DNA of 64,000 nt from a virus, in the UHGV virus genome UHGV-0286546; one strand, written 5' to 3'. The notes under the pieces were generated by a model that ran no database searches, had not been told where the DNA came from, and saw nothing but the letters and a program-made list of their open reading frames with translations. This document shows, piece after piece, positions 16,690 through 61,779 of this stretch (the stretch's first letter is position 1; each line of letters starts with the position of its first letter). The position numbers and the translations under genes are program-made.

Positions 16690-17661
16690 TTAACTAATTA
16701 CTATTCTATTTGTTCTTCCATCACCTTCTACATGGATATTCATTCTGATAGTCTCAATTAAAGATTGTGGCAATGGAGTATCTGTTAAGCAACCCCAGTA
16801 ATTAATCTTAAACGCTGAACCATAAATATATCCTTGACCTTTTAATTTATCTGTAGAAGAAGAATAACGGTCAATATTAGGAATTTCAAATACAGTAAAT
16901 AATTGATTTTCATTATTACCAATGGATGGAGATGCGTACTTATGCCAGATTTGAGCATCAGCACATCTTAAAATAAATTTATCACGAATGTATTGAATCT
17001 CGTCTCGATTATCACATAAAATAACTGCGCTATAAGTACCGGTTATTGATTTTGCTTTATATCTATTTGGTAATTTATCCCCAGTCGCACGTAAATCTTC
17101 AGTATTAAACCAAACATCTTCTTTCTTTAAATTCGGTAGAGATTTAGTAATGACTACTCCATTTATTGATAACTTACAAAAAACTTTATTTTCTTCGGTT
17201 TTAATTTCAACGATTTCACCCTGTAAACCTCTATATCTATCCATAGAAGCAATAAATACAGTATCACCTACTTCCCACGATTCTGGAGGACTAGGTAAAT
17301 CAAAATACCACTGACGAAAACGATTACCGCTTTTCCAAAAGACTGTTTCAATATCATTCTGCATAAAAGCTAAAATAGGATAAGAAACATCTACTCCTTT
17401 TTCTTTATTTATATTTTTTCGGAGTAAGTACGTATTAAAAATTTCTTCAGTATTTAATTCATCTACTTGAAAAACGCGTGAATAATCCCACAGCCAGTCA
17501 TTTTTTATTGGATCTGCATTTATATCTTGTATTCCAAGTTTATTTCTCGGGTCAGCAATTCTCATTTGATTTAATAGTACTTCTCTCATTGCTAAATCAA
17601 CTTCATTTAAACTAGAGTGAAATACACTATTTGTAGGTATATGTAATGTAATATCAGGCAT
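16690..17661 (-). CDS. hypothetical protein (323 aa)
   Basis: Long ORF; no recognisable motif. Confidence 0.5.
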   Translation of the reverse strand: MPDITLHIPTNSVFHSSLNEVDLAMREVLLNQMRIADPRNKLGIQDINADPIKNDWLWDYSRVFQVDELNTEEIFNTYLLRKNINKEKGVDVSYPILAFMQNDIETVFWKSGNRFRQWYFDLPSPPESWEVGDTVFIASMDRYRGLQGEIVEIKTEENKVFCKLSINGVVITKSLPNLKKEDVWFNTEDLRATGDKLPNRYKAKSITGTYSAVILCDNRDEIQYIRDKFILRCADAQIWHKYASPSIGNNENQLFTVFEIPNIDRYSSSTDKLKGQGYIYGSAFKINYWGCLTDTPLPQSLIETIRMNIHVEGDGRTNRIVIS

Positions 17662-30062: not shown

Positions 30063-30548
30063 ATGAAAATATACACAGACGCCAGTACAAGAAGTAATCT
30101 TTCAGGTTTAGCGTTTATAGTTACTGATGCGAAGAACAAAGTGCAATGTAGAAGAGCGTCTGTTGTAGAAGAAAAAGATAATAACACTGCAGAATTGAGA
30201 GCAATATGTTATGCATTGGCGTATACTAAGTCTGTTGATGAGCCTGTTGTATTAATGACAGATTCAACATATGCGATACAGGCGATAAGAGGTGGATATC
30301 ATAGACCTAATGAAGAAAAATTAATAAACTATATTCATGCTCATATGAAAAATAGAAAGTGTAATATATTTTGGGTGAAAGGACATAACAAAGATGGTAC
30401 TGTCCTTTCTTATTTTAATAAAGAAGCAGATAAGTTAGCAAAACACGTTAGAAAAGAATATGAATATAGTGTAGCTAAACAAAAGAAAATAGATAAACAA
30501 AAAAGATTAGAAGCTGCATTGGTATCTAAGAAAGGAAAAAATAGATGA
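30063..30548 (+). CDS. ribonuclease H (RNase HI-like, 161 aa)
   Basis: Catalytic DEDD pattern: IYTDAST, TAELRAICYAL, LMTDSTYAIQ, WVKGHNKDGTVLSYFNKEADKLAKH. Confidence 0.75.
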   Translation: MKIYTDASTRSNLSGLAFIVTDAKNKVQCRRASVVEEKDNNTAELRAICYALAYTKSVDEPVVLMTDSTYAIQAIRGGYHRPNEEKLINYIHAHMKNRKCNIFWVKGHNKDGTVLSYFNKEADKLAKHVRKEYEYSVAKQKKIDKQKRLEAALVSKKGKNR

Positions 30549-31123
30549 GGACCATAGACTTTTATACAGTTAAAGAAAGTGGTGCAAATATAAATAGAGT
30601 TATATATCATGTTGAAAATTCTGATATTGCTCTTATTAGTGCTTTTCGTTCTGATTCTTCGAAAAAACAAAATTTAGAAAATAATAAAAGATTAGCATTA
30701 GATATACATAATATTGGATTATCGTATATAAAAGTTACTGGTAATTATAAAGAAGAAAATAATTCAGAATTTACAACCGAAGATAGTTTTATAGTAATTC
30801 ATCGTCCAGAATCAAATAAAGCACAAGATGAATTTTTTGAAGAAATGCTTGGATTATGTAGAAAATATAATCAAGATGCAGTATTAATTAGTTTAAAAAA
30901 TCGAAAAGATGTCCCTATTGCTTCGTATGATAGTAATGGAAAAATTGTATATGGTCCATTTACTAAACTTACACTGAGTAATATAGAAGATTTTTATACT
31001 AGAATCCATAATCATAGGTTTAAATTTGAAAGCATTGTAGAATCAGAAGAAGGTATAAAACCGAGCGGATATTCAAATGCCATGCGATATTATGGAACAA
31101 AAGCTTTATTAAAATTAAAATAG
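30545..31123 (+). CDS. hypothetical protein (192 aa); leaderless paralog of 31592..32329
   Basis: Shares FFEEMLGLCRKYNQDAVLISL block with 31592..32329 (FKEEMLALGRKYNQETILLKL). Confidence 0.55.
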   Translation: MRTIDFYTVKESGANINRVIYHVENSDIALISAFRSDSSKKQNLENNKRLALDIHNIGLSYIKVTGNYKEENNSEFTTEDSFIVIHRPESNKAQDEFFEEMLGLCRKYNQDAVLISLKNRKDVPIASYDSNGKIVYGPFTKLTLSNIEDFYTRIHNHRFKFESIVESEEGIKPSGYSNAMRYYGTKALLKLK

Positions 31124-31224
31124 AAGTTTGAGACGTTGAGATTGCGGCTCTGGAGATAATCCTAAATTTATTATATACAATCTCTCAATTAAAACGTTAA
31201 CTTATAGAAAAGGAATAAATAGTC

Positions 31225-31587
31225 ATGTTGAATGGCAGCAATCAAGCACATAAAAGTAGTGCATACGAATCTTTGAGCAAATTAGAACAAGCTGAATTAG
31301 ACACTTTTATTAGAGGTCTTATTCAAGGGGCTTGTGCTTTTACAGACGAGTTTACAGTTTCAGATATTGTAGGTGGTAAGTTTACGCATTGGAAAAATAC
31401 TCCTTTGCATAAAATATATCTTTACCATAAGCATAGAAAAGATTGTGATAATCCGGTGGCCGAATCTGGTAAAGATATGGGAAGAATCTTTAAATATGTC
31501 ATGGCTAAAGATAAATTTAGAAATTATACTCTAGTCGGTACAGAACAAAGACAATTTCCAATTAACCGTTATAGAATAGAGTACTAA
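31225..31587 (+). CDS. hypothetical protein (120 aa)
   Basis: ORF with RBS AAAGGAA. Confidence 0.5.
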   Translation: MLNGSNQAHKSSAYESLSKLEQAELDTFIRGLIQGACAFTDEFTVSDIVGGKFTHWKNTPLHKIYLYHKHRKDCDNPVAESGKDMGRIFKYVMAKDKFRNYTLVGTEQRQFPINRYRIEY

Positions 31588-31591
31588 TAAA

Positions 31592-32329
31592 ATGTCAAAA
31601 TTTAAAGAAGTAGTAGAAAATGCTTTAAAAGAAAGAGGATTTTCTTTACAAAAACTAACAAATAATCTTGAGATAGATAGTCCGATATGTACGTGTTTTA
31701 TAACTGCATATTTAGAAACAAATGACAAGGAAACAAATATTGCTAATAACAACAAATTAGAATTAAATATTGTATCTCTCGGTTATGAATACGGTTATAA
31801 AAAAATCCTTGGTGGATATGTTTATTCAAATGGAACTTTTGCTAAAGAGCCTGGATTTTTAGTATCTTGTAAAAGAACTAATGTATTACCTGAAGATTTT
31901 AAAGAAGAAATGTTAGCTCTTGGCAGGAAATACAATCAAGAAACTATTTTACTAAAGTTACCAGGAGAAAAACCAGCTTACTATAATACCAGAGGTAATA
32001 AAATAGATGAAAAGGATATTGAATTCGCCTTTACAAAGCAGGTAGATCCAACAAAACCGAAAACACTTTATCCAAATGAAATTACAGCTTGGAGTAAAGG
32101 ATATACTCAATTACAAAAAGATGCAAACAAAGGTAAAAATCAAGCTATTGAATTGACCAATGAAAACTCTTCTGTTTTTGAATCGTTGATATTGACTGAT
32201 GAAGAAATCAATGAATTAAAAGAAGATACCAGAGAAAAATGTTTTTGTAGTGGCTCTGGGATATTAAGAATGGCTGCCTGTAGAGAACATTTGGGTTTAG
32301 AACCTTATCCTTGTCTCAAAAAGCGGTAA
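31592..32329 (+). CDS. member of MS(K/R)F(K/R)TIVEN-leader paralog family (245 aa)
   Basis: N-terminus MSKFKEVVENAL; body homologous to 30545..31123. Confidence 0.6.
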   Translation: MSKFKEVVENALKERGFSLQKLTNNLEIDSPICTCFITAYLETNDKETNIANNNKLELNIVSLGYEYGYKKILGGYVYSNGTFAKEPGFLVSCKRTNVLPEDFKEEMLALGRKYNQETILLKLPGEKPAYYNTRGNKIDEKDIEFAFTKQVDPTKPKTLYPNEITAWSKGYTQLQKDANKGKNQAIELTNENSSVFESLILTDEEINELKEDTREKCFCSGSGILRMAACREHLGLEPYPCLKKR

Positions 32330-32345
32330 TTTGAAAGTGTTTAAA

Positions 32346-32954
32346 ATGTCAAGCTTTAGAGAAATAGTAAATACTATTTTGAAGTCAGCTTTACTTGGTA
32401 AAAATCCTAATGTTGAATCATTAGCTATTATTACAGCTGAAGATTCCTTTGGTAAAAAAATTAACAGAAGAGACAATGCTACTCGATTGAAAGTTTTTAA
32501 GATACAATTGAAGCTAGGAGGTCATCCTTATGAAAACATTGTTGATAAATATGGAAATAAAGAGCATTCTTTTGTAATTTTTAATTTATCAAGATCTGCT
32601 GCTAAAAATTATGCAAAAGTATATGAGCAAGAATCGTTTATTTTTGGCATAAAGAATAAAGATGACATGTTATATGAATATTGGGAAACTGTAGATAATG
32701 GTAAAACTTATAATTTATCTAAAACTACAGATTTTATAAGAAATGAGCCAGAATTAGAAGATTATTTTTCTAGATTACATGATTATAAATTTAATATAGG
32801 CTTTGATTTTAATGAATCTATCGACGAAGAAACTGTAAGAAAATTAGAATCTATTACGACTCCAGAAGATAAGAAATGGATTAAAGAATATATTAATGAA
32901 GAACGTGTAGGTATGGCTTCTTATTTACATTATAAAAAGTTGTATAAAAATTAA
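32346..32954 (+). CDS. member of MSxFxxIVxN-leader paralog family (start at second ATG: MSSFREIVNTIL)
   Basis: Internal Met gives family-consensus N-terminus. Confidence 0.5.
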   Translation: MSSFREIVNTILKSALLGKNPNVESLAIITAEDSFGKKINRRDNATRLKVFKIQLKLGGHPYENIVDKYGNKEHSFVIFNLSRSAAKNYAKVYEQESFIFGIKNKDDMLYEYWETVDNGKTYNLSKTTDFIRNEPELEDYFSRLHDYKFNIGFDFNESIDEETVRKLESITTPEDKKWIKEYINEERVGMASYLHYKKLYKN

Positions 32955-33595: not shown

Positions 33596-33603
33596 ATTTT
33601 TAT

Positions 33604-33723
33604 GAGAGGGTAGCTCAGTCTGGTAGAGCAACGTAAAAAAGTATTTAGTATTTAAGTACGTTCAGCAACATATATTTTTGGTTGGTAACCCGTGTGTCGT
33701 AGGTTCAAATCCTACCCCTCTCA
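33604..33723 (+). tRNA. tRNA-like element with ~46-nt insertion replacing a canonical anticodon arm (intron-containing, disrupted or repurposed tRNA)
   Basis: Perfect acceptor GAGAGGG/CCCTCTC, canonical D-arm GCTCAGTCTGGTAGAGC and T-arm GTAGG-TTCAAAT-CCTAC, but 68 nt (33631..33698) between them with no foldable 17-nt anticodon arm; no encoded CCA. Confidence 0.45.
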
Positions 33724-34355
33724 ACAAGTTTTGGTTTGTTAGTTTAGATAGGCTATAATTAAAGTAAGTAAGTTTGGAAGTTACGACACAGACCAAATAA
33801 CCTATCGTTTCCAAATTATCTTTATCGTTGTCGTGAAGGATAAAGAGTGAAAAACTAACGTTAAAGTGACAAAAAGTATACTTAATTATCCAAAGTATTG
33901 CCAATATCACTTGAATTTATGGGTGTCGTGTTTTCGAAAGAGCATGAAGGTCAGGGTCAATCCCAAAAGAGTCACGAACGTGGATTTCATATTTTACCTC
34001 CACCTGCCCATAATTTTTTATGCTCCGTCGTAGTCTTGGTGACCACTAGTTGAATGTCTATAGCTCCAGTCAATTAGTATGGGAATACTGTTCGAATCAG
34101 TTACGGGGTACCAATTTTTATGAGTAGTTTATTAGTTCTTCTCGCCTTGGAAAATTGAACTAGTGAATAGTCATCTTGTAATGGTAAACATTCTTGACTG
34201 AAACTAAAGAAAAGTTTATATGTTTATTAGAGTAATATGGTAAGCCGCGGCTGAGACTTATAAGGGTAAGTAGATATATAGATGTAATGAAAGTTTTACC
34301 ACAGTATAAAGATTAGTAATATGAAGAAAGAATTAAATGACGCGAGGATAAAATA

Positions 34356-34562: not shown

Positions 34563-34650
34563 GGAGGAATGGCAGAGTGGCTTAATGCAGCGGTTTACTA
34601 AACCGTCGTACCGAAAGGTGCCGTGGGTTCAAATCCTACTTCCTCCGCCA
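34563..34650 (+). tRNA. class II tRNA (88 nt, Ser-like architecture) with non-canonical anticodon loop TTACTAA (ACT by standard register)
   Basis: Acceptor GGAGGAA/TTCCTCC, anticodon arm (G)CGGT-TTACTAA-ACCG(T), variable-arm hairpin GTACC-GAAA-GGTGC, T-arm GTGGG-TTCAAAT-CCTAC, CCA encoded. Confidence 0.5.
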
Positions 34651-34657
34651 ATTTATT

Positions 34658-34751
34658 AGGTCTGTCGTTCAATGGTTAGGACACTAGGCTTATACCCTAG
34701 CGAGCGTCTGATTAACGCGAAATCCCAGTTCGAGTCTGGGCGGACCTACCA
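34658..34751 (+). tRNA. 94-nt tRNA-like gene: anticodon arm CTAGG-CTTATAC-CCTAG (TAT) followed by a 23-nt extra arm that itself looks like an anticodon stem-loop (GCGT-CTGATTA-ACGC)
   Basis: Acceptor AGGTCTG/CGGACCT, D-arm GTTC-AATGGTTA-GGAC, T-arm CCCAG-TTCGAGT-CTGGG, CCA encoded. Confidence 0.45.
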
Positions 34752-34971: not shown

Positions 34972-35046
34972 TATTATTTCCGGTTTTACAATATTTTTAA
35001 CAAGACATATATTTGTTTATAGATTAACAGAAAAAAGGAAGTGGAT

Positions 35047-36531
35047 ATGTCTGATAATAAAACAATGACTGAAAAAGGTGCTATTACTAATCAATCTACA
35101 TTAGACAAAGTTGTAGATTGGTTTTATCATGGAGCCGCATTACGTAGAGAAAAAAACAAAGACCGTATTATAGCTTTGTTTGATGATGCTTTTAAACAGG
35201 ATAAAACCAAAGCATTGCGTATTTTATTTTATATTCGTGATATTCGTGGTGGTCAAGGTGAAAGACGCATTTTTAGAATTTGCTTAAATCATTTGGCAAA
35301 AATAGAATCTGCTTGGTTAAAAGACAATTTGGCATTAATTGCTGAATACGGCAGATATGATGATTATTTGTGCTTGCTTGATACAGAAATTAAAAGTGCT
35401 GTAATTGATTTCGTTAAAGCACAATTAGATAAAGATATTGCTGCAATAGATAGCAATACACCTATTTCATTGCTTGCCAAATGGATGCCTTCCGTTACAA
35501 CCAAGAATAAAGAAAAAAGAAGATATTTAAATGCTCTTTTGAATTCTGGTAAATTTGGCACAGTAAAAAATTATAGACAAACGTTATCTAAACTTCGTGA
35601 TAAATTAAATATTGTTGAAAAGAATCTTTGCAATAAAGCCTTTGCTGAAATTGAATATTCTAAAGTTTCTTCTAATGCAATGTCTAAGTATTCAAAAACT
35701 AGAATTTCATCTGGATTAGCTGGTACTTTTTGGCGCAATGACTTAGATAGATTTAAAATGTATTTAGACGCTGTTAAAAACGGTAAAACAATCGACGGCA
35801 AAGAAGTAAAAATAAATGCAAAAACCTTATATCCATATGATGTTATTACAAAATATATGAGTGGTTATAGTATAAGTCATCAAGAAGATCCTGCAGCGGA
35901 AGCTCAATGGAATGCTTTACCTGATTATGTACCAGAGATTAACGGCATTGTAATTTATGATACTTCGGGTTCAATGTATGGATTACCTATGGCTGTATCT
36001 TTGTCGTTGGCTATTTATATTGCTGAAAGAAATAAATCAGAAGTTTGGCGTAATTATGTTATTCCATTCTCATCTAATGCGACTTGGAAAAAAGTAAAGG
36101 GTAACAATTTAGTAGAAAAAATTGAATCTATTTATACTGGAGATTGTTCAAATACTAATTTACAAGCAGCCTTTGATCTTATTTTAGGTAAAGCTATATA
36201 TGCGCAAGTACCTAAAGAAGATATGCCAAAACAGCTGATTATTATTAGTGATATGGAATTTGATTCGGTTTCTTCTAATAACCAAACTAATTATGAAGCT
36301 ATAAAAAGCAAATATAAGAAAGCTGGTTATGACTTACCACAATTAATCTGGTGGAACGTTGAATCAAGAAGCAATCAAACACCGATTACAGTAAATGATA
36401 AAAATTGTTTATTGCTTTCTGGCTGTTCACCGGTAGTTATGCAAGTAGCTTTGGGTGGTTCATACGATTTTATGGAAGCAATCGATAAAATTATTAACCA
36501 AGAACGTTATAGTTGCATCAATTATAATTAG
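35047..36531 (+). CDS. von Willebrand factor A (vWA) domain protein with DUF2828/TROVE-like N-terminal region
   Basis: MIDAS motif IVIYDTSGSMYG; N-terminal ALRILFYIRDIRGGQGERRIF block reminiscent of DUF2828-type proteins (uncertain); ATG at 35047 preferred over GTG at 35041. Confidence 0.6.
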   Translation: MSDNKTMTEKGAITNQSTLDKVVDWFYHGAALRREKNKDRIIALFDDAFKQDKTKALRILFYIRDIRGGQGERRIFRICLNHLAKIESAWLKDNLALIAEYGRYDDYLCLLDTEIKSAVIDFVKAQLDKDIAAIDSNTPISLLAKWMPSVTTKNKEKRRYLNALLNSGKFGTVKNYRQTLSKLRDKLNIVEKNLCNKAFAEIEYSKVSSNAMSKYSKTRISSGLAGTFWRNDLDRFKMYLDAVKNGKTIDGKEVKINAKTLYPYDVITKYMSGYSISHQEDPAAEAQWNALPDYVPEINGIVIYDTSGSMYGLPMAVSLSLAIYIAERNKSEVWRNYVIPFSSNATWKKVKGNNLVEKIESIYTGDCSNTNLQAAFDLILGKAIYAQVPKEDMPKQLIIISDMEFDSVSSNNQTNYEAIKSKYKKAGYDLPQLIWWNVESRSNQTPITVNDKNCLLLSGCSPVVMQVALGGSYDFMEAIDKIINQERYSCINYN

Positions 36532-36650
36532 TTCTTAATAACTATTAAAGACTGTGAAAAACGTACAGCAATCTATAAAATATTTTATATTGAAGACTTG
36601 CTGTGTTTTAACAGCATGATAAGGTATTAATTTCGGTTAATACCTGTTTA

Positions 36651-36715
36651 TAAGGAAGGGCCGAAACAAAAGTTTTTCGTTAAAAGACAGTCTTTACGGT
36701 CCTTCCTTTTTTTTA
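36651..36715 (+). terminator. long hairpin + T8 terminator after vWA gene
   Basis: AAGGAAGGGCCG...CGGTCCTTCCTTTTTTTT. Confidence 0.6.
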
Positions 36716-38042: not shown

Positions 38043-38600
38043 TTGTTGAGTTATAACAGATTAAAAAATTTTAGAAAATTACGAAAACTAGCTATATTAC
38101 AAGGATTTGGCGGAAAATGTCAATGTTGTGGTTATAACAAATGCGTTCAAGCTTTAGAATTTCATCATTTAAATTGTAATGATAAAGAATTTTCTATTAG
38201 TACCATTATGAATAAAAACTGGAACGAAATAAAAAATGAATTAAAAAAATGTATTTGTGTGTGTGCCAATTGTCATAGAGAAATACACAATAATTTATTA
38301 GAAATTGATGTTAATAAACAATATTTTGACGAAAACGCCGTACAAGATTATGAATGTGCTATAAATAAGGTAACAAAATATAGCAAATGTCCAATTTGCG
38401 GAGCATTAAAACCAGAATATAACAAATTTTGTTCTCGAAAATGTGCCGCGAAATCAAGAGATAGAGTAAATTGGGAACAATACGAAAGTTTAGTTTATAT
38501 TATTGATAATAAAATTGAATCTATTAATAGTATTGCTTCTAAATTAAATATTTCTTGGCAAGCTGTAAAGAAAAGATATAAAAAATTAAAATCGCAATAA
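38043..38600 (+). CDS. HNH homing endonuclease (185 aa, TTG start with AGGGAG RBS) inserted inside tRNA operon
   Basis: CQCCGYNKCVQALEFHHLNCN ... CANCHREIHNN = HNH/zinc-binding signature. Confidence 0.7.
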   Translation: MLSYNRLKNFRKLRKLAILQGFGGKCQCCGYNKCVQALEFHHLNCNDKEFSISTIMNKNWNEIKNELKKCICVCANCHREIHNNLLEIDVNKQYFDENAVQDYECAINKVTKYSKCPICGALKPEYNKFCSRKCAAKSRDRVNWEQYESLVYIIDNKIESINSIASKLNISWQAVKKRYKKLKSQ

Positions 38601-39390: not shown

Positions 39391-39452
39391 ATAAAATTGT
39401 TTTACTTTTATTAAAAATAATATATATTTATTTTAAATAGCTTTGCATTAGA

Positions 39453-39529
39453 GGATTCTTAGCTCAATTGGATAGAGCAATAGCCTTCTAAGCTATGGGT
39501 TGCAAGTTCGAATCTTGCAGAATCCGCCA
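39453..39529 (+). tRNA. tRNA-Arg (anticodon TCT)
   Basis: Acceptor GGATTCT/AGAATCC, anticodon arm ATAGC-CTTCTAA-GCTAT, T-arm TTGCAAG-TTCGAAT-CTTGCAG, CCA. Confidence 0.8.
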
Positions 39530-39577
39530 TTTTTTTATTATTTTCTGTTTTACATTTTTTAATTATGGTGTATTTTA

Positions 39578-39855
39578 TTAATATCTGTTATGGCGGAAGT
39601 ATAGACGCTAGATGGAGTGTGGAGAGAGGAAGTGAATCCGGAATAGCTTACCTCGCAGATGAAAAGAATACGGCCGAAAGCGGTGAATAATCGCAATCGG
39701 AGAAACCGTAGAACGGAGGCTCAGACGGGATGCAAACTAACCAATTAAGTCACAATTCGCGAAGTGATGTCATCGAGCCCAAAACAAAGACCACACGTTC
39801 TAAAGGGTTGGTATTTTCTTAATAGTATATCATGGCTTTAGATAACAGATATTAA
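39578..39855 (+). ncRNA. candidate structured non-coding RNA / IR-bounded element: GC-enriched 250-nt ORF-free core flanked by perfect 14-bp inverted repeats TTAATATCTGTTAT / ATAACAGATATTAA
   Basis: No ORF >=60 aa on either strand; GC much higher than flanks; sits in tRNA island directly 3' of tRNA-Arg (T4 encodes stable RNAs C/D in its tRNA region, a precedent). Confidence 0.4.
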
Positions 39856-39887
39856 CAAAGTATATAGTGAAAGGAATGAATAAATAG

Positions 39888-40295
39888 ATGTTGGAAAAAA
39901 TAAAAGAAAAAATTAAAGATTGGTGGTTTTCTAGAGATAGTATTTTTAATTTTTATTTCTCAATATCTTCATCTGGTATTTTTATAAATTTTACTATATT
40001 AGATTACGGTATAGATTTAGATATCACTATTCCGTGTATTCTTCCTAGCTTCTATATTAAAACCTTTTATGAAAAAGAACAAGAAATCTTTACAAATAAA
40101 TTTTGGGGTGAACAGTTTACATTTGTTTCTGATTTGCGTACAGAATTTGGTACAGGTTGGTTTGTTAATCAAGATCATGCTGGTTTTAGTGCTCAAGCGT
40201 CAATTTTAGGTTTTAATTATAGTTATGAATTGAGAGATACAAGGCATTGGGATTACTTTAAAAATTGCTGGAAGAGCTGTTCAGAAGATAAATAA
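39888..40295 (+). CDS. hypothetical protein (135 aa), F/W/Y-rich
   Basis: ORF. Confidence 0.5.
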   Translation: MLEKIKEKIKDWWFSRDSIFNFYFSISSSGIFINFTILDYGIDLDITIPCILPSFYIKTFYEKEQEIFTNKFWGEQFTFVSDLRTEFGTGWFVNQDHAGFSAQASILGFNYSYELRDTRHWDYFKNCWKSCSEDK

Positions 40296-40350: not shown

Positions 40351-41106
40351 ATGAGTAGATTCAGAACAATTGTAGAAAATATCATAAAAACTTTTACAGA
40401 AGACGCGTTCTCAGACAGAGATAGATATAAAGAGGCAATTGATGTATATCTTAATGTATTAGATAAAATGGAACCGTCTCTAAATACAGATAAAATTATT
40501 ACAGATAGCGCAGAATGTGTCAGTTTACAAGTAGATACACCTCATGGTCCTCTAATTGTTAGTGTTTCTCTAGATAAAGATGTACATAATGCCGGTGTAT
40601 ATTATCCAGAATACAACGCTATTGAACTTAACATACACGGTATAATGGATTTGAGTGATGAAACTATAAACATGACAGATCCGATTACCGGTGAAGAAAA
40701 TGTTACAGGTATAAATGCTAAATACTTATATAAAATTTTATCTTCTCGTGCCGTTCAAGATACATTTATTCACGAATATACCCATTTTATAGATGATAAA
40801 ACAAAGTACTCCATGAAAAAGCAAGCAGATACATATAAAAATATAGATTATTTCAATAAACCTTACGAAAGAAATGCGTTTTATATTGCTTGGTTAAATA
40901 AAATCGTTTCATATACCTATAAAAAATATGGTAAAATAATGAAAGAGTTGACACCAGATGAACGATTAAATTTTTTAAGAAATGCTTGGAAAGAAGACGA
41001 AGAATTTGTAGAATATTATAATAAACTTGAACCTGCTGCAAAGAAAAGATTTATGTCAAGATTATATAATTATTTTAGTACTGATTTCTGGTCGGATGCT
41101 GCATAA
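40351..41106 (+). CDS. leader-family member (MSRFRTIVENIIK) with HExxH zinc-metallopeptidase motif (251 aa)
   Basis: DTFIHEYTHFIDD = HEXXH; conserved N-terminal decapeptide. Confidence 0.55.
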   Translation: MSRFRTIVENIIKTFTEDAFSDRDRYKEAIDVYLNVLDKMEPSLNTDKIITDSAECVSLQVDTPHGPLIVSVSLDKDVHNAGVYYPEYNAIELNIHGIMDLSDETINMTDPITGEENVTGINAKYLYKILSSRAVQDTFIHEYTHFIDDKTKYSMKKQADTYKNIDYFNKPYERNAFYIAWLNKIVSYTYKKYGKIMKELTPDERLNFLRNAWKEDEEFVEYYNKLEPAAKKRFMSRLYNYFSTDFWSDAA

Positions 41107-41774: not shown

Positions 41775-42530
41775 ATGAGTAAGTTTAAAACCATCGTAGA
41801 AAATGCATTATATGAAGTTGGAGCATTGCCTTTTCCAAAAAATATTCAAGTATATGCTAAAAAAGAAAAAGTAAATTTATTTGAAATTAAATATTTACGA
41901 AAAGATGGTAAATTGGATGAACCAGGTGGAATTTGTTATGCTAAAACTGGAATTTGGAAAGATATCCGTGAAAATGAAAATGCTTTTATACGCACGCAAT
42001 TAGATGAAAAATTTAGACCAGATCAAGGCAATTTTAGTAAATATCGTGGTGGTATGATTGTATTTGCTCTGAGTGTCAATACTGTCATTGATAAATTGAA
42101 TTATAATCAATTAGTTGCAGAAATTAAAAAGATTTGGTATACCTTAATAAACAATACCTTTAAAAATAAAATGATTAAAGGTGTAGTTAATTCTATGAAA
42201 AATACTTATGCTAACATTGAAGATGCAGAGATCGGAGGTATTACAATAGGTAATAACTTTAAAGGCATGTATTTTGATGGTAATAAAGTATATAATGATA
42301 AATCAACGAGTTTAGAAATAAATGACATTTCTAGTGAGATGTTGTTATTACTAGCTATTGAAATTTGTAAAGCATTTCGTCAAGATAGCGTTTTAATCAA
42401 AGATTTCAATAAAAATAAATTCTTTTTGTGTGATTCTGAAGAAGTAGAAGGCGAAATTCCAGAAGAAAAAATAAAAAACGCTTCTAAAGACTTAGCAAAC
42501 TTAAAGAATGTAAATACAAAAACAAAATAA
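41775..42530 (+). CDS. leader-family member (MSKFKTIVENALYE), 251 aa hypothetical
   Basis: Conserved N-terminus. Confidence 0.55.
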   Translation: MSKFKTIVENALYEVGALPFPKNIQVYAKKEKVNLFEIKYLRKDGKLDEPGGICYAKTGIWKDIRENENAFIRTQLDEKFRPDQGNFSKYRGGMIVFALSVNTVIDKLNYNQLVAEIKKIWYTLINNTFKNKMIKGVVNSMKNTYANIEDAEIGGITIGNNFKGMYFDGNKVYNDKSTSLEINDISSEMLLLLAIEICKAFRQDSVLIKDFNKNKFFLCDSEEVEGEIPEEKIKNASKDLANLKNVNTKTK

Positions 42531-43589: not shown

Positions 43590-43940
43590 CTAACGATATT
43601 TAAAGTATAATGTATCTGCTTCATATCTTATTCTGTTATAACGTATTATATTTTTTACATCTTCTATATCAGAGTCTGGAACAGTAAACCATTCACCACG
43701 CATTTTATAATTTTTACGACGTAATTCTCTATGTATTAATCTTTCGATTTTAAGTAAATGATTTCTTTCACATTCAAATTCTTCAGTAAACAATAACACC
43801 AAATCATTCGGATGTCCGGTTTGTAATTCTTTTATTCTTTTATTAGGATCTTTAGATATACCTACTTTTATATGACCGTTATTATCTCCAATCATATACA
43901 TATAATCTAAAGGTTGTATTTCATCATTTATTATTTGCAT
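43590..43940 (-). CDS. T5orf172/GIY-YIG-like (MUG113-type) domain protein, putative homing endonuclease
   Basis: YMYMIGDNNGHIKVGISKDPNKRIKELQTGHPNDLVLL ... GEWF matches T5orf172 core. Confidence 0.65.
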   Translation of the reverse strand: MQIINDEIQPLDYMYMIGDNNGHIKVGISKDPNKRIKELQTGHPNDLVLLFTEEFECERNHLLKIERLIHRELRRKNYKMRGEWFTVPDSDIEDVKNIIRYNRIRYEADTLYFKYR

Positions 43941-53623: not shown

Positions 53624-53959
53624 ATGACAAAGGCTAAAAAAACCATGACTGTTGAAGAAGTACGTAAAGCAAGAGAAGAAAACATCCCGGTAGTATTTAA
53701 TATGATAGCTGCACTGAAGGCCATAGAAGATACGCCTGCCAAGGTTGTTAAAAGCGGTGCTCTTGGTGATTTCAGTAAGGATATTATGGAATTGTTTAGG
53801 CAGGCCGGTACCCCCTTGGCATTAAATCAGGTAAGAGCGGCACTTATAGCAGGGGGTAAGGAAGTTACAGCGAAGCAGGTTGCTGATAGATGCTGGTTGC
53901 TTGCGAAGCGTGGTCAGTTGAAGAAGGGTACTGATAAAGGTGTATATGAGTTAGCTTAA
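53624..53959 (+). CDS. hypothetical basic helical protein (111 aa), first gene of higher-GC block
   Basis: ORF preceded by AACCAACC-N-GAAAGGAAA leader motif. Confidence 0.55.
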   Translation: MTKAKKTMTVEEVRKAREENIPVVFNMIAALKAIEDTPAKVVKSGALGDFSKDIMELFRQAGTPLALNQVRAALIAGGKEVTAKQVADRCWLLAKRGQLKKGTDKGVYELA

Positions 53960-54132
53960 GAGCGCCGCATGGTAATTGATATAAGGGGATGTCGTTAGTG
54001 ATGTCCCCTTTTGTTGTATATGAGTAGTATATATAAACGACGAAGATGAGTGAGCGTCGCTTATACATATTGCTTGATAGACAGAATTAAGTGATATGAA
54101 ACCCAACCGATATTAAATGAAAGGAAAATATT

Positions 54133-61461: not shown

Positions 61462-61779
61462 ATGACAAAACAGATTAAAACGTTAACTGACAAACAGATT
61501 GAAGAGTTGGTTAAAGCTTACGTAGAATATAAAAACGCTGAACAGAAATTTAAAGACCTTAAAGAAAAATATACCAAAGACTTGGTCGAAGGTAAATTTT
61601 CAGCTGAAGGCATTGGTGAAGTTATTAAAACCAAGTTTGTAAGGTCTTCCCTCAATTCCACAAGATTATCAGAAGAACACCCTGAAATCAACCTTGATGA
61701 ATATAAAGATTCCACTGAATCAACAAGTGTAACCATTAAAAATAAAATGGTTAACAATAAAGTTCTTGGTATATTCTAA
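61462..61779 (+). CDS. hypothetical protein (105 aa)
   Basis: RBS AAGGAG. Confidence 0.55.
   Translation: MTKQIKTLTDKQIEELVKAYVEYKNAEQKFKDLKEKYTKDLVEGKFSAEGIGEVIKTKFVRSSLNSTRLSEEHPEINLDEYKDSTESTSVTIKNKMVNNKVLGIF

Follow-up and report, generated by a model that had tools for sequence, protein, structure and literature searches.

What is the short GC-rich segment that interrupts the tRNA genes of UHGV virus genome UHGV-0286546, and what might it do for the virus? The 64,000-nucleotide stretch of this genome that we analyzed, hereafter the window, belongs to a 480-kb metagenomic scaffold (ENA ERZ28658812), has an overall GC content of 30.9% and carries a cluster of 20 tRNA genes. Among them lie 278 bases at positions 39578-39855, hereafter the element, which begin with TTAATATCTGTTAT (39578-39591) and end with its exact reverse complement (39842-39855), forming a perfect 14-bp inverted repeat around a 250-nt core. 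A first-pass annotation, made from the sequence alone, had proposed that the element is either a stable structured RNA or a miniature mobile element, and its description of the locus was accurate. The repeats have the coordinates and sequences claimed; the core (39592-39841) reaches 45.2% GC as compared with 11-25% in the flanks, its plus strand being rich in purines; and no open reading frame (ORF) longer than 45 aa touches the element, and none of any length is conserved among relatives. The description is correct but not compelling alone, since a repeat of this kind is expected about 0.5 times per 64 kb and the fold score is modest. Within the window no other perfect 14-bp inverted repeat has its arms 100-400 nt apart, and in 64-kb sequences simulated by a first-order Markov model such repeats number 0.48 on average, with one or more in a third of the simulated windows; the inverted repeat by itself is therefore not beyond chance. 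The single-sequence fold is only moderately better than that of shuffled sequences (z = -3.3 for the plus strand and -2.4 for the minus strand). It is the comparison with homologues that establishes the reality of the element.

A blastn search of GenBank phages returned no DNA match to the element, and none was found in IMG/VR and JGI metagenomes by the first exact-pattern scans, which used variable parts of the RNA. The flanking proteins (135 aa and 158 aa) have homologues within the same phage clade only, in contigs that carry the element at 98-100% identity while the downstream protein falls to 75% and the upstream one to 86%. This near-identity despite diverged flanking proteins was a first sign of constraint, and the few substitutions in the predicted stems of these close relatives are mostly C to U opposite G. 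The route to distant homologues led through the relatives of a 496-aa Ro60-like protein encoded upstream of the element (see below), followed by a scan with a 19-mer. A diverged copy was found by nhmmer in the 238-kb contig L017 (contigs and loci are cited here by their L numbers), in which the ends and two internal helices have changed in sequence with their pairing kept, and the 19-mer directly behind the terminal stem, GGCGGAAGTATAGACGCTA, is unaltered. When three public collections were scanned with this 19-mer, 26 loci were obtained, about half of which are true homologues as judged by flanking inverted repeats and common motifs. They form seven AT-rich lineages of rumen or gut phage-like contigs (L017/19, L022/39, L023/30/32, L024/41, L025/40, L026/34 and L035/38/43), with elements of 239-331 nt, and three to four GC-rich environmental homologues (L028, L036, L037 and perhaps L033), with elements of 177-217 nt; the GC-rich members were recovered by the exact 19-mer, so that the presence of hairpin P2 in them follows from the search. 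A further, near-identical copy lies in L047, which is binned in a Succinivibrionaceae metagenome-assembled genome. The 65 extra loci obtained by a relaxed scan that allowed variation in the P2 stem were all chance matches. The covariance model R1, built on the core and not on the full length, recovers every AT-rich member at 90-140 bits and gives 28-31 bits for the GC-rich L037 and L028, in which only P1, P2 and P8 align; weak R1 matches in two distant DUF2828 loci, L059 and L101, were rejected, both lying within ORFs. A literature search with the family motif returned a single match, an unrelated apicomplexan genomics paper, and nothing relevant. The family is an undescribed structured RNA of large gut and rumen phages, absent from Rfam 15.

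Covariation among these homologues, which amount to about nine diverged lineages of gut and rumen phages plus the GC-rich environmental contigs, strongly backs the structured RNA of the first-pass annotation. RNAalifold predicts 44 pairs from 12 sequences, 35 of them with compensatory double changes. In the nine-sequence core alignment standard pairs occupy 95.2% of cells, against 31-44% when the partners are slid by one to three columns, and double changes occur in 35 pairs, compared with 4-13 after sliding; the observed values were not attained in any of 500 column shuffles. A model-based alignment of 18 sequences, which includes the GC-rich members, is 95.0% paired with double changes in 34 pairs, slid-control pairing over both alignments being 31-46%. 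Moreover, G-U pairs occur throughout the fold, and these would be C-A mismatches on the other strand; the RNA is therefore read from the plus strand, which is also the strand of all neighbouring genes. The parts of the RNA, in which a long terminal helix (P1), an invariant 5' hairpin (P2) and a 3' hairpin (P8) surround a variable interior, are as follows.

39578-39590, plus strand: 5' strand of the terminal helix P1, pairing with 39843-39855 and extending outward, with mismatches, to 39568.
39843-39855, plus strand: 3' strand of P1, extending with mismatches to 39865.
39591-39610, plus strand: hairpin P2, UGGCG paired with CGCUA around the loop GAAGUAUAGA; it holds the 19-mer GGCGGAAGUAUAGACGCUA (39592-39610).
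39611-39616, plus strand: joining segment J2/3, the conserved GAUGGA, near-invariant in the alignment.
39617-39622, plus strand: 5' strand of P3 (GUGUGG), pairing with 39791-39796.
39791-39796, plus strand: 3' strand of P3 (CCACAC).
39626-39654, plus strand: hairpin P4, with a conserved AGAGAG ahead of it and the invariant palindrome CCGG (39638-39641) in its loop.
39655-39669, plus strand: joining segment J4/5, a CGNAGAUGAA-like segment conserved in the alignment.
39670-39709, plus strand: family-variable hairpin P5, ACGG-CCGA-AA-GCGGU-loop-AUCGC-AA-UCGG-AGAAA-CCGU, from the minimum free energy (MFE) fold.
39718-39722, plus strand: 5' strand of P6 (GGCUC), with a conserved AACNGAG ahead of it, pairing with 39775-39779.
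39775-39779, plus strand: 3' strand of P6 (GAGCC).
39727-39742, plus strand: short hairpin P7, with the conserved loop AUGYRAACU and covarying closing pairs (GC, AU, CG).
39749-39768, plus strand: family-variable hairpin P7b (GUCAC/GUGAU), from the MFE fold, in a region variable in the alignment; its loop contains TCGCGAA.
39780-39790, plus strand: joining segment J6/3, CAAAACAAAGA, invariant or near-invariant in all AT-rich members.
39799-39842, plus strand: hairpin P8 (UCUAAAG paired with CUUUAGA), abutting the 3' strand of P1, with a conserved GG...UGG beside the stem.
39809-39811 with 39830-39832, plus strand: P8b, the inner helix of P8, in which all three pairs covary.

P1, the inverted repeat of the first-pass annotation, which varies from 10 to 25 bp across homologues, shows compensatory changes in all 10 modelled pairs and 98-100% of paired cells, while 6-7 of the 7 pairs of P8 covary, with 99-100% of cells paired. 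The long-range central stem P3 has compensatory changes in five of its six pairs, P6 in all five (nine-sequence core alignment) and P4 in four of six, with 81-83% of cells paired. The P2 19-mer does not vary in any AT-rich lineage, the sole change seen being a C to U opposite G in L015, and conserved joining segments include GAUGGA, AGAGAG and CAAAACAAAGAC. Two details to which the first-pass annotation had pointed as signs of folding did not hold up. Its GAAA-type loop, CCGAAAGCGG, is not a GNRA hairpin and belongs to the three-tier variable hairpin P5 (ACGG/CCGU, CCGA/UCGG and GCGGU/AUCGC), which shows G-C to G-U changes at 39692 and 39694 in close relatives and is missing or swapped for unrelated AT-rich hairpins in other lineages; the TCGCGAA palindrome falls in the loop of the equally family-variable P7b. 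The GC-rich members have only P1, P2 and P8 in common with the others, P8 being reduced to 6 bp with a loop of 7-8 nt ending in GG, and their interiors are unrelated. The RNA has a conserved handle (P1-P2-P8) plus an interior that is kept in the gut-phage group and replaced elsewhere; in this interior P3 leads into a domain of several hairpins, some of them conserved and some specific to a lineage.

Does this fold correspond to any RNA already known? Scanned against Rfam 15 at the gathering threshold, the whole window yields tRNAs only, and the scan that the first-pass annotation had proposed as a check gave no family for the element even under permissive conditions: the element showed nothing relevant up to E of 10, nor did six homologous loci up to E of 1, with riboswitches, ribozymes, RNase P, signal recognition particle (SRP) RNA, 6S, tmRNA, group I/II introns, GOLLD and ROOL among the families covered. 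ARAGORN, run also with intron and permuted settings, calls no tmRNA or tRNA in the element. Strings reminiscent of other RNAs were rejected. Those resembling CR-I/CR-V of RNase P RNA, the SRP S-domain and the hammerhead and hairpin ribozymes lack the needed pairings or motifs, or do not conserve them, and none has a covariance-model match; the T-box-like AGGGUUGGUA likewise has its needed features absent or unconserved, with no match even at E of 10; and the reading frame of a putative tmRNA tag (ADEKNTAESGE*) is not conserved, again with no covariance-model match. In general plan the RNA does resemble tmRNA, with paired ends, a small 5' element, a long stem leading into a big domain and a 3' hairpin by the closing helix, but it differs in having no T-loop, G3:U70, CCA end or conserved tag frame. 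(No tmRNA is called in the window; a distantly related 122-kb IMG/VR phage contig, L012, has a 36%-identical Ro-like gene and, some 6 kb further downstream, a tmRNA at 17256-17625 whose tag is GNEFDIAENFLDTASVEVGVGEVAFA*.) Because there is no Rfam match, no conserved ORF, no extra copy and a varying downstream gene, we regard the element as a stand-alone RNA gene, and neither as a miniature inverted-repeat mobile element (MITE) nor as a leader. Comparative analysis shows it to be a plus-strand gene with the fold above, whose predicted product is a non-coding RNA of about 250-280 nt, stable and structured.

A possible clue to a function for this RNA is the gene through which its distant homologues were found.

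35041-36531, plus strand: gene for the Ro60-like protein of 496 aa, with Pfam DUF2828 and DUF7788, the proposed protein partner.

The protein belongs to PHROG 850 ('RNA-binding protein') and combines a helical-repeat ring with a vWA domain bearing the MIDAS motif DxSxS, of which residues D307, S309 and S311 are invariant among homologues. Searching the PDB by sequence was uninformative. An AlphaFold2 model built from 36 homologues (pLDDT 90) has as its best full-length Foldseek matches Xenopus Ro60 (1yvr, E 4e-9), Ro60-RNA complexes and Deinococcus Rsr (2nvo), and the full-length matches include the Ro60 of Thermus phage phiLo (9l5y, 9kop). By this modelled fold the protein is Ro60-like. Homologues are present in 711 GenBank phages, those of mycobacteriophages being annotated as 'Ro-like RNA binding protein'. 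Among the genes neighbouring the element, Pfam and PHROGs found no RNA ligase, RtcB, PNPase or kinase.

By published criteria, a bacterial Y RNA is encoded within 4 kb of the Ro60 gene on the same strand and has a long end-to-end stem and a conserved motif on the 5' strand that is contacted by Ro (PMC4201824; bioRxiv 10.1101/312249). The RNA described here follows the Ro-like gene on the same strand within this 4-kb distance (PMC4201824) in the window (3.0 kb) and in L017 (3.6 kb), L048 (1.3 kb), L049 (1.6 kb) and L038 (2.7 kb), its ends pair in P1, as detailed above, and the invariant UGGCGGAAG stands directly behind P1 on the 5' side, above the terminal helix. In Deinococcus radiodurans, the Northern probe for Yrn1 is complementary to CCAACCUCAAUGGGCGGAAGCGGUG, and Rsr protects G7, G8, C9, G11 and A12 of Yrn1 (PMC4201824). 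Our motif GGCGGAAG is identical over 8 nt to the complement of this probe, and AUGGCGGAAG resembles the probe-inferred AAUGGGCGGAAG; the octamer would thereby be placed at the Rsr-protected site, the protected bases fitting GGCGGA. Known Ro-binding motifs are GGUCCGA in animals and GNCGAAN0-1G in YrlA, to the latter of which UGGCGGAAG is not an exact fit. The modular layout of Y RNAs, a handle plus an effector, is matched by the GC-rich members, since they keep P1, P2 and P8 with unrelated interiors. On this basis we tentatively favour, at somewhat less than an even chance, the reading that the RNA is a large Y-RNA-like scaffold and partner of the phage's own Ro60-like protein, and we propose P2, by analogy with Yrn1, as the Ro60-binding motif.

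Whether the DUF2828 branch of Ro-like proteins travels with Y-like RNAs at all could be judged from Mycobacterium phage Zaria, in which a match to the YrlA family of Rfam lies on the same strand as a DUF2828-type Ro-like gene, 125 nt downstream of it.

L193 6008-6116, corresponding to about 40384-40492 of Zaria MN586023.1: unannotated YrlA-like RNA (RF02553), 39.8 bits, E 4e-6.

Although this match does not reach the gathering score of 69, its T and D arms are clearly recognizable, and we infer that the DUF2828 branch does travel with Y-like RNAs. (The Zaria RNA occupies part of a 360-nt gap behind the Ro-like gene, in which further structured-looking sequence and a terminator follow.) With Zaria as a working positive control, YrlA has no match at E of 10 on 39400-40000 of the window or on the GC-rich members. 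The 33.5-40 kb region of the window contains no canonical YrlA, one weak match there spanning two tandem tRNAs, a known artefact, and a search for GNCGAA-type motifs flanked by terminal stems gave matches in coding regions only, for instance at window position 61585.

If the RNA is indeed a partner of Ro60, the phage's Ro60-like protein, whose gene precedes the element on the same strand, would bind the P1-P2-P8 handle, and the RNA would act like an oversized Y RNA, gating the Ro ring or tethering it to a host factor via the variable interior. The precedent for such a factor is PNPase, a 3'-5' exoribonuclease, as known from Deinococcus and Salmonella and also from Thermus phage phiLo, in which the phage Ro60 binds the PNPase of the host along with two Y-like RNAs encoded by the phage (PMC12135203). 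The resulting particle, under phage control, could work in RNA surveillance or degradation during infection. The RNA would probably be produced with the tRNA cluster or next to it, and the long P1 helix may shield its ends or be a site of processing.

Compared with the bacterial and phage Y RNAs (Yrn1/Yrn2, the YrlA/YrlB of Salmonella and Mycobacterium [RF02553] and Yrl1/Yrl2 of phiLo), the RNA shares the nearby same-strand Ro60-type gene (in five lineages), the paired ends, a conserved purine-rich 5' motif atop the terminal helix and the combination of conserved handle and variable interior. Several observations weigh against assigning it to them. At 240-330 nt it is two to three times longer than characterized Y RNAs, which have about 80-130 nt and one large internal loop, and its elaborate covarying core (P3, P4, P6, P7 and junctions) would be superfluous for a simple tether. 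It has no YrlA or Y_RNA match at E of 10 and no recognizable tRNA-like T or D arms, and the proposed partner protein is of the DUF2828/DUF7788 branch and not of Pfam TROVE. The comparison with Yrn1 is a match of 8-11 nt deduced from an oligonucleotide probe; the prediction puts the candidate Ro motif into the local hairpin P2 and not into the terminal helix; and the pairing of P2 lies beyond the covariation test because P2 never varies. Linkage is also imperfect. In L022/L039 and L025 no Ro-like gene lies within the 4-12 kb of flank, and these contigs are absent among the best 80 IMG/VR Ro-like matches; conversely, L021 has a Ro-like gene with no such RNA within 10 kb, and R1 found no convincing homologue in 80 more distant DUF2828 loci. 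The five syntenic lineages are related phages, so that the linkage may reflect common descent and not function. Finally, another structured element in the window could be the primary partner of the protein, although bacteria and phage phiLo each possess two or more Y RNAs.

36545-36712, plus strand: second structured and conserved element, adjoining the 3' end of the Ro-like gene.

It has a long interrupted end helix (AAAGACUGU-GAAAAAC with GUUUUUC-bulge-ACAGUCUUU), a conserved motif, CGUACAGCA, and a terminator-like end made of a long hairpin with a U8 run behind. Compensatory changes are seen in L016, L017, L038 and L048, and it occurs in no locus that lacks the Ro-like gene. Either it is a further Y-like RNA candidate, in competition with the main element or beside it, or it forms the 3' untranslated region and terminator of the Ro-like gene.

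The alternative that survives best, and one which we consider quite possible if still doubtful, is that the RNA is an 'ornate' phage RNA with a conserved core of its own function, sharing with the Ro-like gene nothing more than a hypervariable tRNA island. Its suggested jobs are catalysis, binding to tRNA or to tRNA-processing or translation factors, acting as a decoy against host defences that target tRNA, and self-assembly through CCGG. The covarying multi-helix core and the invariant single-stranded AGAGAG, CCGG, AUGYRAACU and CAAAACAAAGAC, which exceed what is found in known Y RNAs, speak for it, as do the imperfect linkage just described, in both directions and beside the 80 distant Ro-like genes, and the position of the RNA among tRNA genes in several lineages, with a tRNA-like sequence behind it in L023. 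Yet no ribozyme or other Rfam family was matched, and the GC-rich members drop the whole core, which means that the handle and not the interior is universally conserved; furthermore, this reading has to put down to chance both the identity of GGCGGAAG with Yrn1 and the five lineages that have the Ro-like gene. In a modular form of this alternative, which we likewise hold possible with reservations, the RNAs would be a Ro60-independent class whose handle docks onto a conserved host machine of tRNA processing, translation or RNA decay; the swappable interior might then, with a similar degree of doubt, carry lineage-specific activities such as catalysis, tRNA decoy or CCGG-loop self-assembly.

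Large, intricately folded RNAs often found beside tRNA genes are familiar from phages and prophages in the form of GOLLD and ROOL, the biochemical function of which is unknown. The present RNA is like them an intricately folded phage non-coding RNA by tRNA genes, and its CCGG loop could in principle self-associate; unlike them (some 600-800 nt) it has about 270 nt and another layout of helices, and it has no match to their models. Species 1 and 2 of phage T4 (rnaC and rnaD) are small stable RNAs of the tRNA cluster that are processed with the tRNAs and have no known function. The first-pass annotation had invoked the stable RNAs of T4, and this analogy holds for location only: species 1 and 2 show no sequence relationship to the element in the GenBank phage search, they differ from it in size and fold, and T4 is not known to have a Ro60-like gene.

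The immediate surroundings of the element raise the question whether it might act in cis.

39453-39529, plus strand: tRNA-Arg(TCT), called by ARAGORN and Rfam; the upstream neighbour, outside the RNA family, with which co-transcription is possible.
39549-39576, plus strand: weak sigma-70-like promoter match (TTTACA-16-TATTTT), which would start transcription inside the 5' strand of P1.

The element does follow tRNA-Arg closely, as first noted, the gap being 48 nt, and the upstream neighbour differs in other lineages. Sigma-70-like matches of this quality occur at chance level in the AT-rich DNA of the window; L035 has a similarly placed TTTACA-17-TATAAA, and the GC-rich L028 has a TATAAT about 7 nt ahead of P1 and an intrinsic terminator right behind it. 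A cis-acting 5' leader, riboswitch or processing signal for the downstream gene (39888-40295) would fit with the 3' arm ending 32 nt ahead of the start codon, with the lack of a terminator between element and gene in the window and with the homologue of this gene (41% identity) behind the RNA in L017. We nevertheless judge it very unlikely, considering that the downstream neighbour differs in L022, L024, L025, L026 and L035 and is replaced by a tRNA-like sequence in L023, that L028 has its own promoter-like box and terminator, and that neither a riboswitch or T-box match at E of 10 nor a conserved alternative pairing of the expression-platform kind was found.

Still less probable is the MITE, or remnant of one, of the first-pass annotation. 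Perfect terminal repeats of 14 bp and a GC content foreign to the flanks would suit it. However, the element occurs once in the 64-kb window and once in every contig, with no further copy of the repeat; it has a constant syntenic place, with no target-site duplication, no empty sites among relatives and no transposase nearby; and its arms covary together with compensated internal long-range helices and strand-specific G-U pairs, which indicates an RNA and not transposase binding sites. The chance that a small protein-coding gene was missed, the outcome that the first-pass annotation had said would overturn it, is next to nil, for the 41-aa ORF (39565-39690) that a gene caller annotated in one contig, L011, lacks a ribosome-binding site, most substitutions that separate close relatives are non-synonymous and no ORF of at least 25 aa is common across lineages, L017 having none at all.

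The tRNA island around the element contains further unusual features. On the plus strand at 33603-33725 lies a tRNA-like gene whose acceptor, D and T arms are canonical and whose anticodon region holds an insertion of about 39-45 nt; it is missed by default ARAGORN and Rfam, called as an intron-containing tRNA-Lys(ttt) by 'aragorn -i' and conserved at 76-77% identity in L016 and L017. A second tRNA-like sequence (34021-34113, plus strand), inside a GC-rich, ORF-poor island at 33889-34118, has a 7-bp acceptor stem (GCTCCGT/ACGGGGT), a canonical T arm (ACTG-TTCGAAT-CAGT) and an encoded ACCA; it is uncalled by ARAGORN and Rfam and conserved in close relatives. Unusual long tRNAs called Ser(ACT) and Ile(TAT) (34563-34650 and 34658-34751) stand directly upstream of the Ro-like gene; the former lies just upstream of that gene in L017 and L021 too, and the latter about 1-2 kb upstream there. 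An HNH endonuclease gene between tRNA genes (38043-38600) is retained in some close relatives and missing in others (L004, L005, L007 and L009), and a T5orf172/MUG113 gene of GIY-YIG-like type (43590-43940, minus strand) is the most widely common neighbour of the RNA across lineages; together, the presence or absence of the former and the vicinity of the latter make the tRNA island look like a hotspot for homing elements. Four paralogous genes matching the S-adenosylmethionine lyase and/or DUF3293 families of Pfam lie in and around the island (30545-32954 and 41775-42530). Farther away, a 111-aa ORF (53624-53959) with 54% GC, very high for this DNA, is followed by a GC-rich terminator hairpin (53986-54012) and looks like a recently acquired gene.

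Ro60 and Y RNAs constitute a system of RNA surveillance conserved from bacteria to humans, the substrates and partners of which are poorly defined, and RNA partners of phage Ro60-like proteins are known in a few mycobacteriophages and one Thermus phage only. A covarying RNA of 240-330 nt with a Yrn1-type motif, located by a Ro-like gene and belonging to a family defined by alignment, structure and covariance model, is a concrete candidate for such a partner in gut and rumen megaphages. The RNA would be either a new, unusually large variant of Y RNA, if it is a partner of Ro, or a new RNA class, if it is not. In the latter case it would still be a new and well-defined family of structured RNA, whose invariant motif of 19 nt spans genomes of 30% GC and 58% GC. 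If binding proves true, Y RNAs can be far larger and more elaborate than those characterized so far, with a hint at how phages may use Ro.

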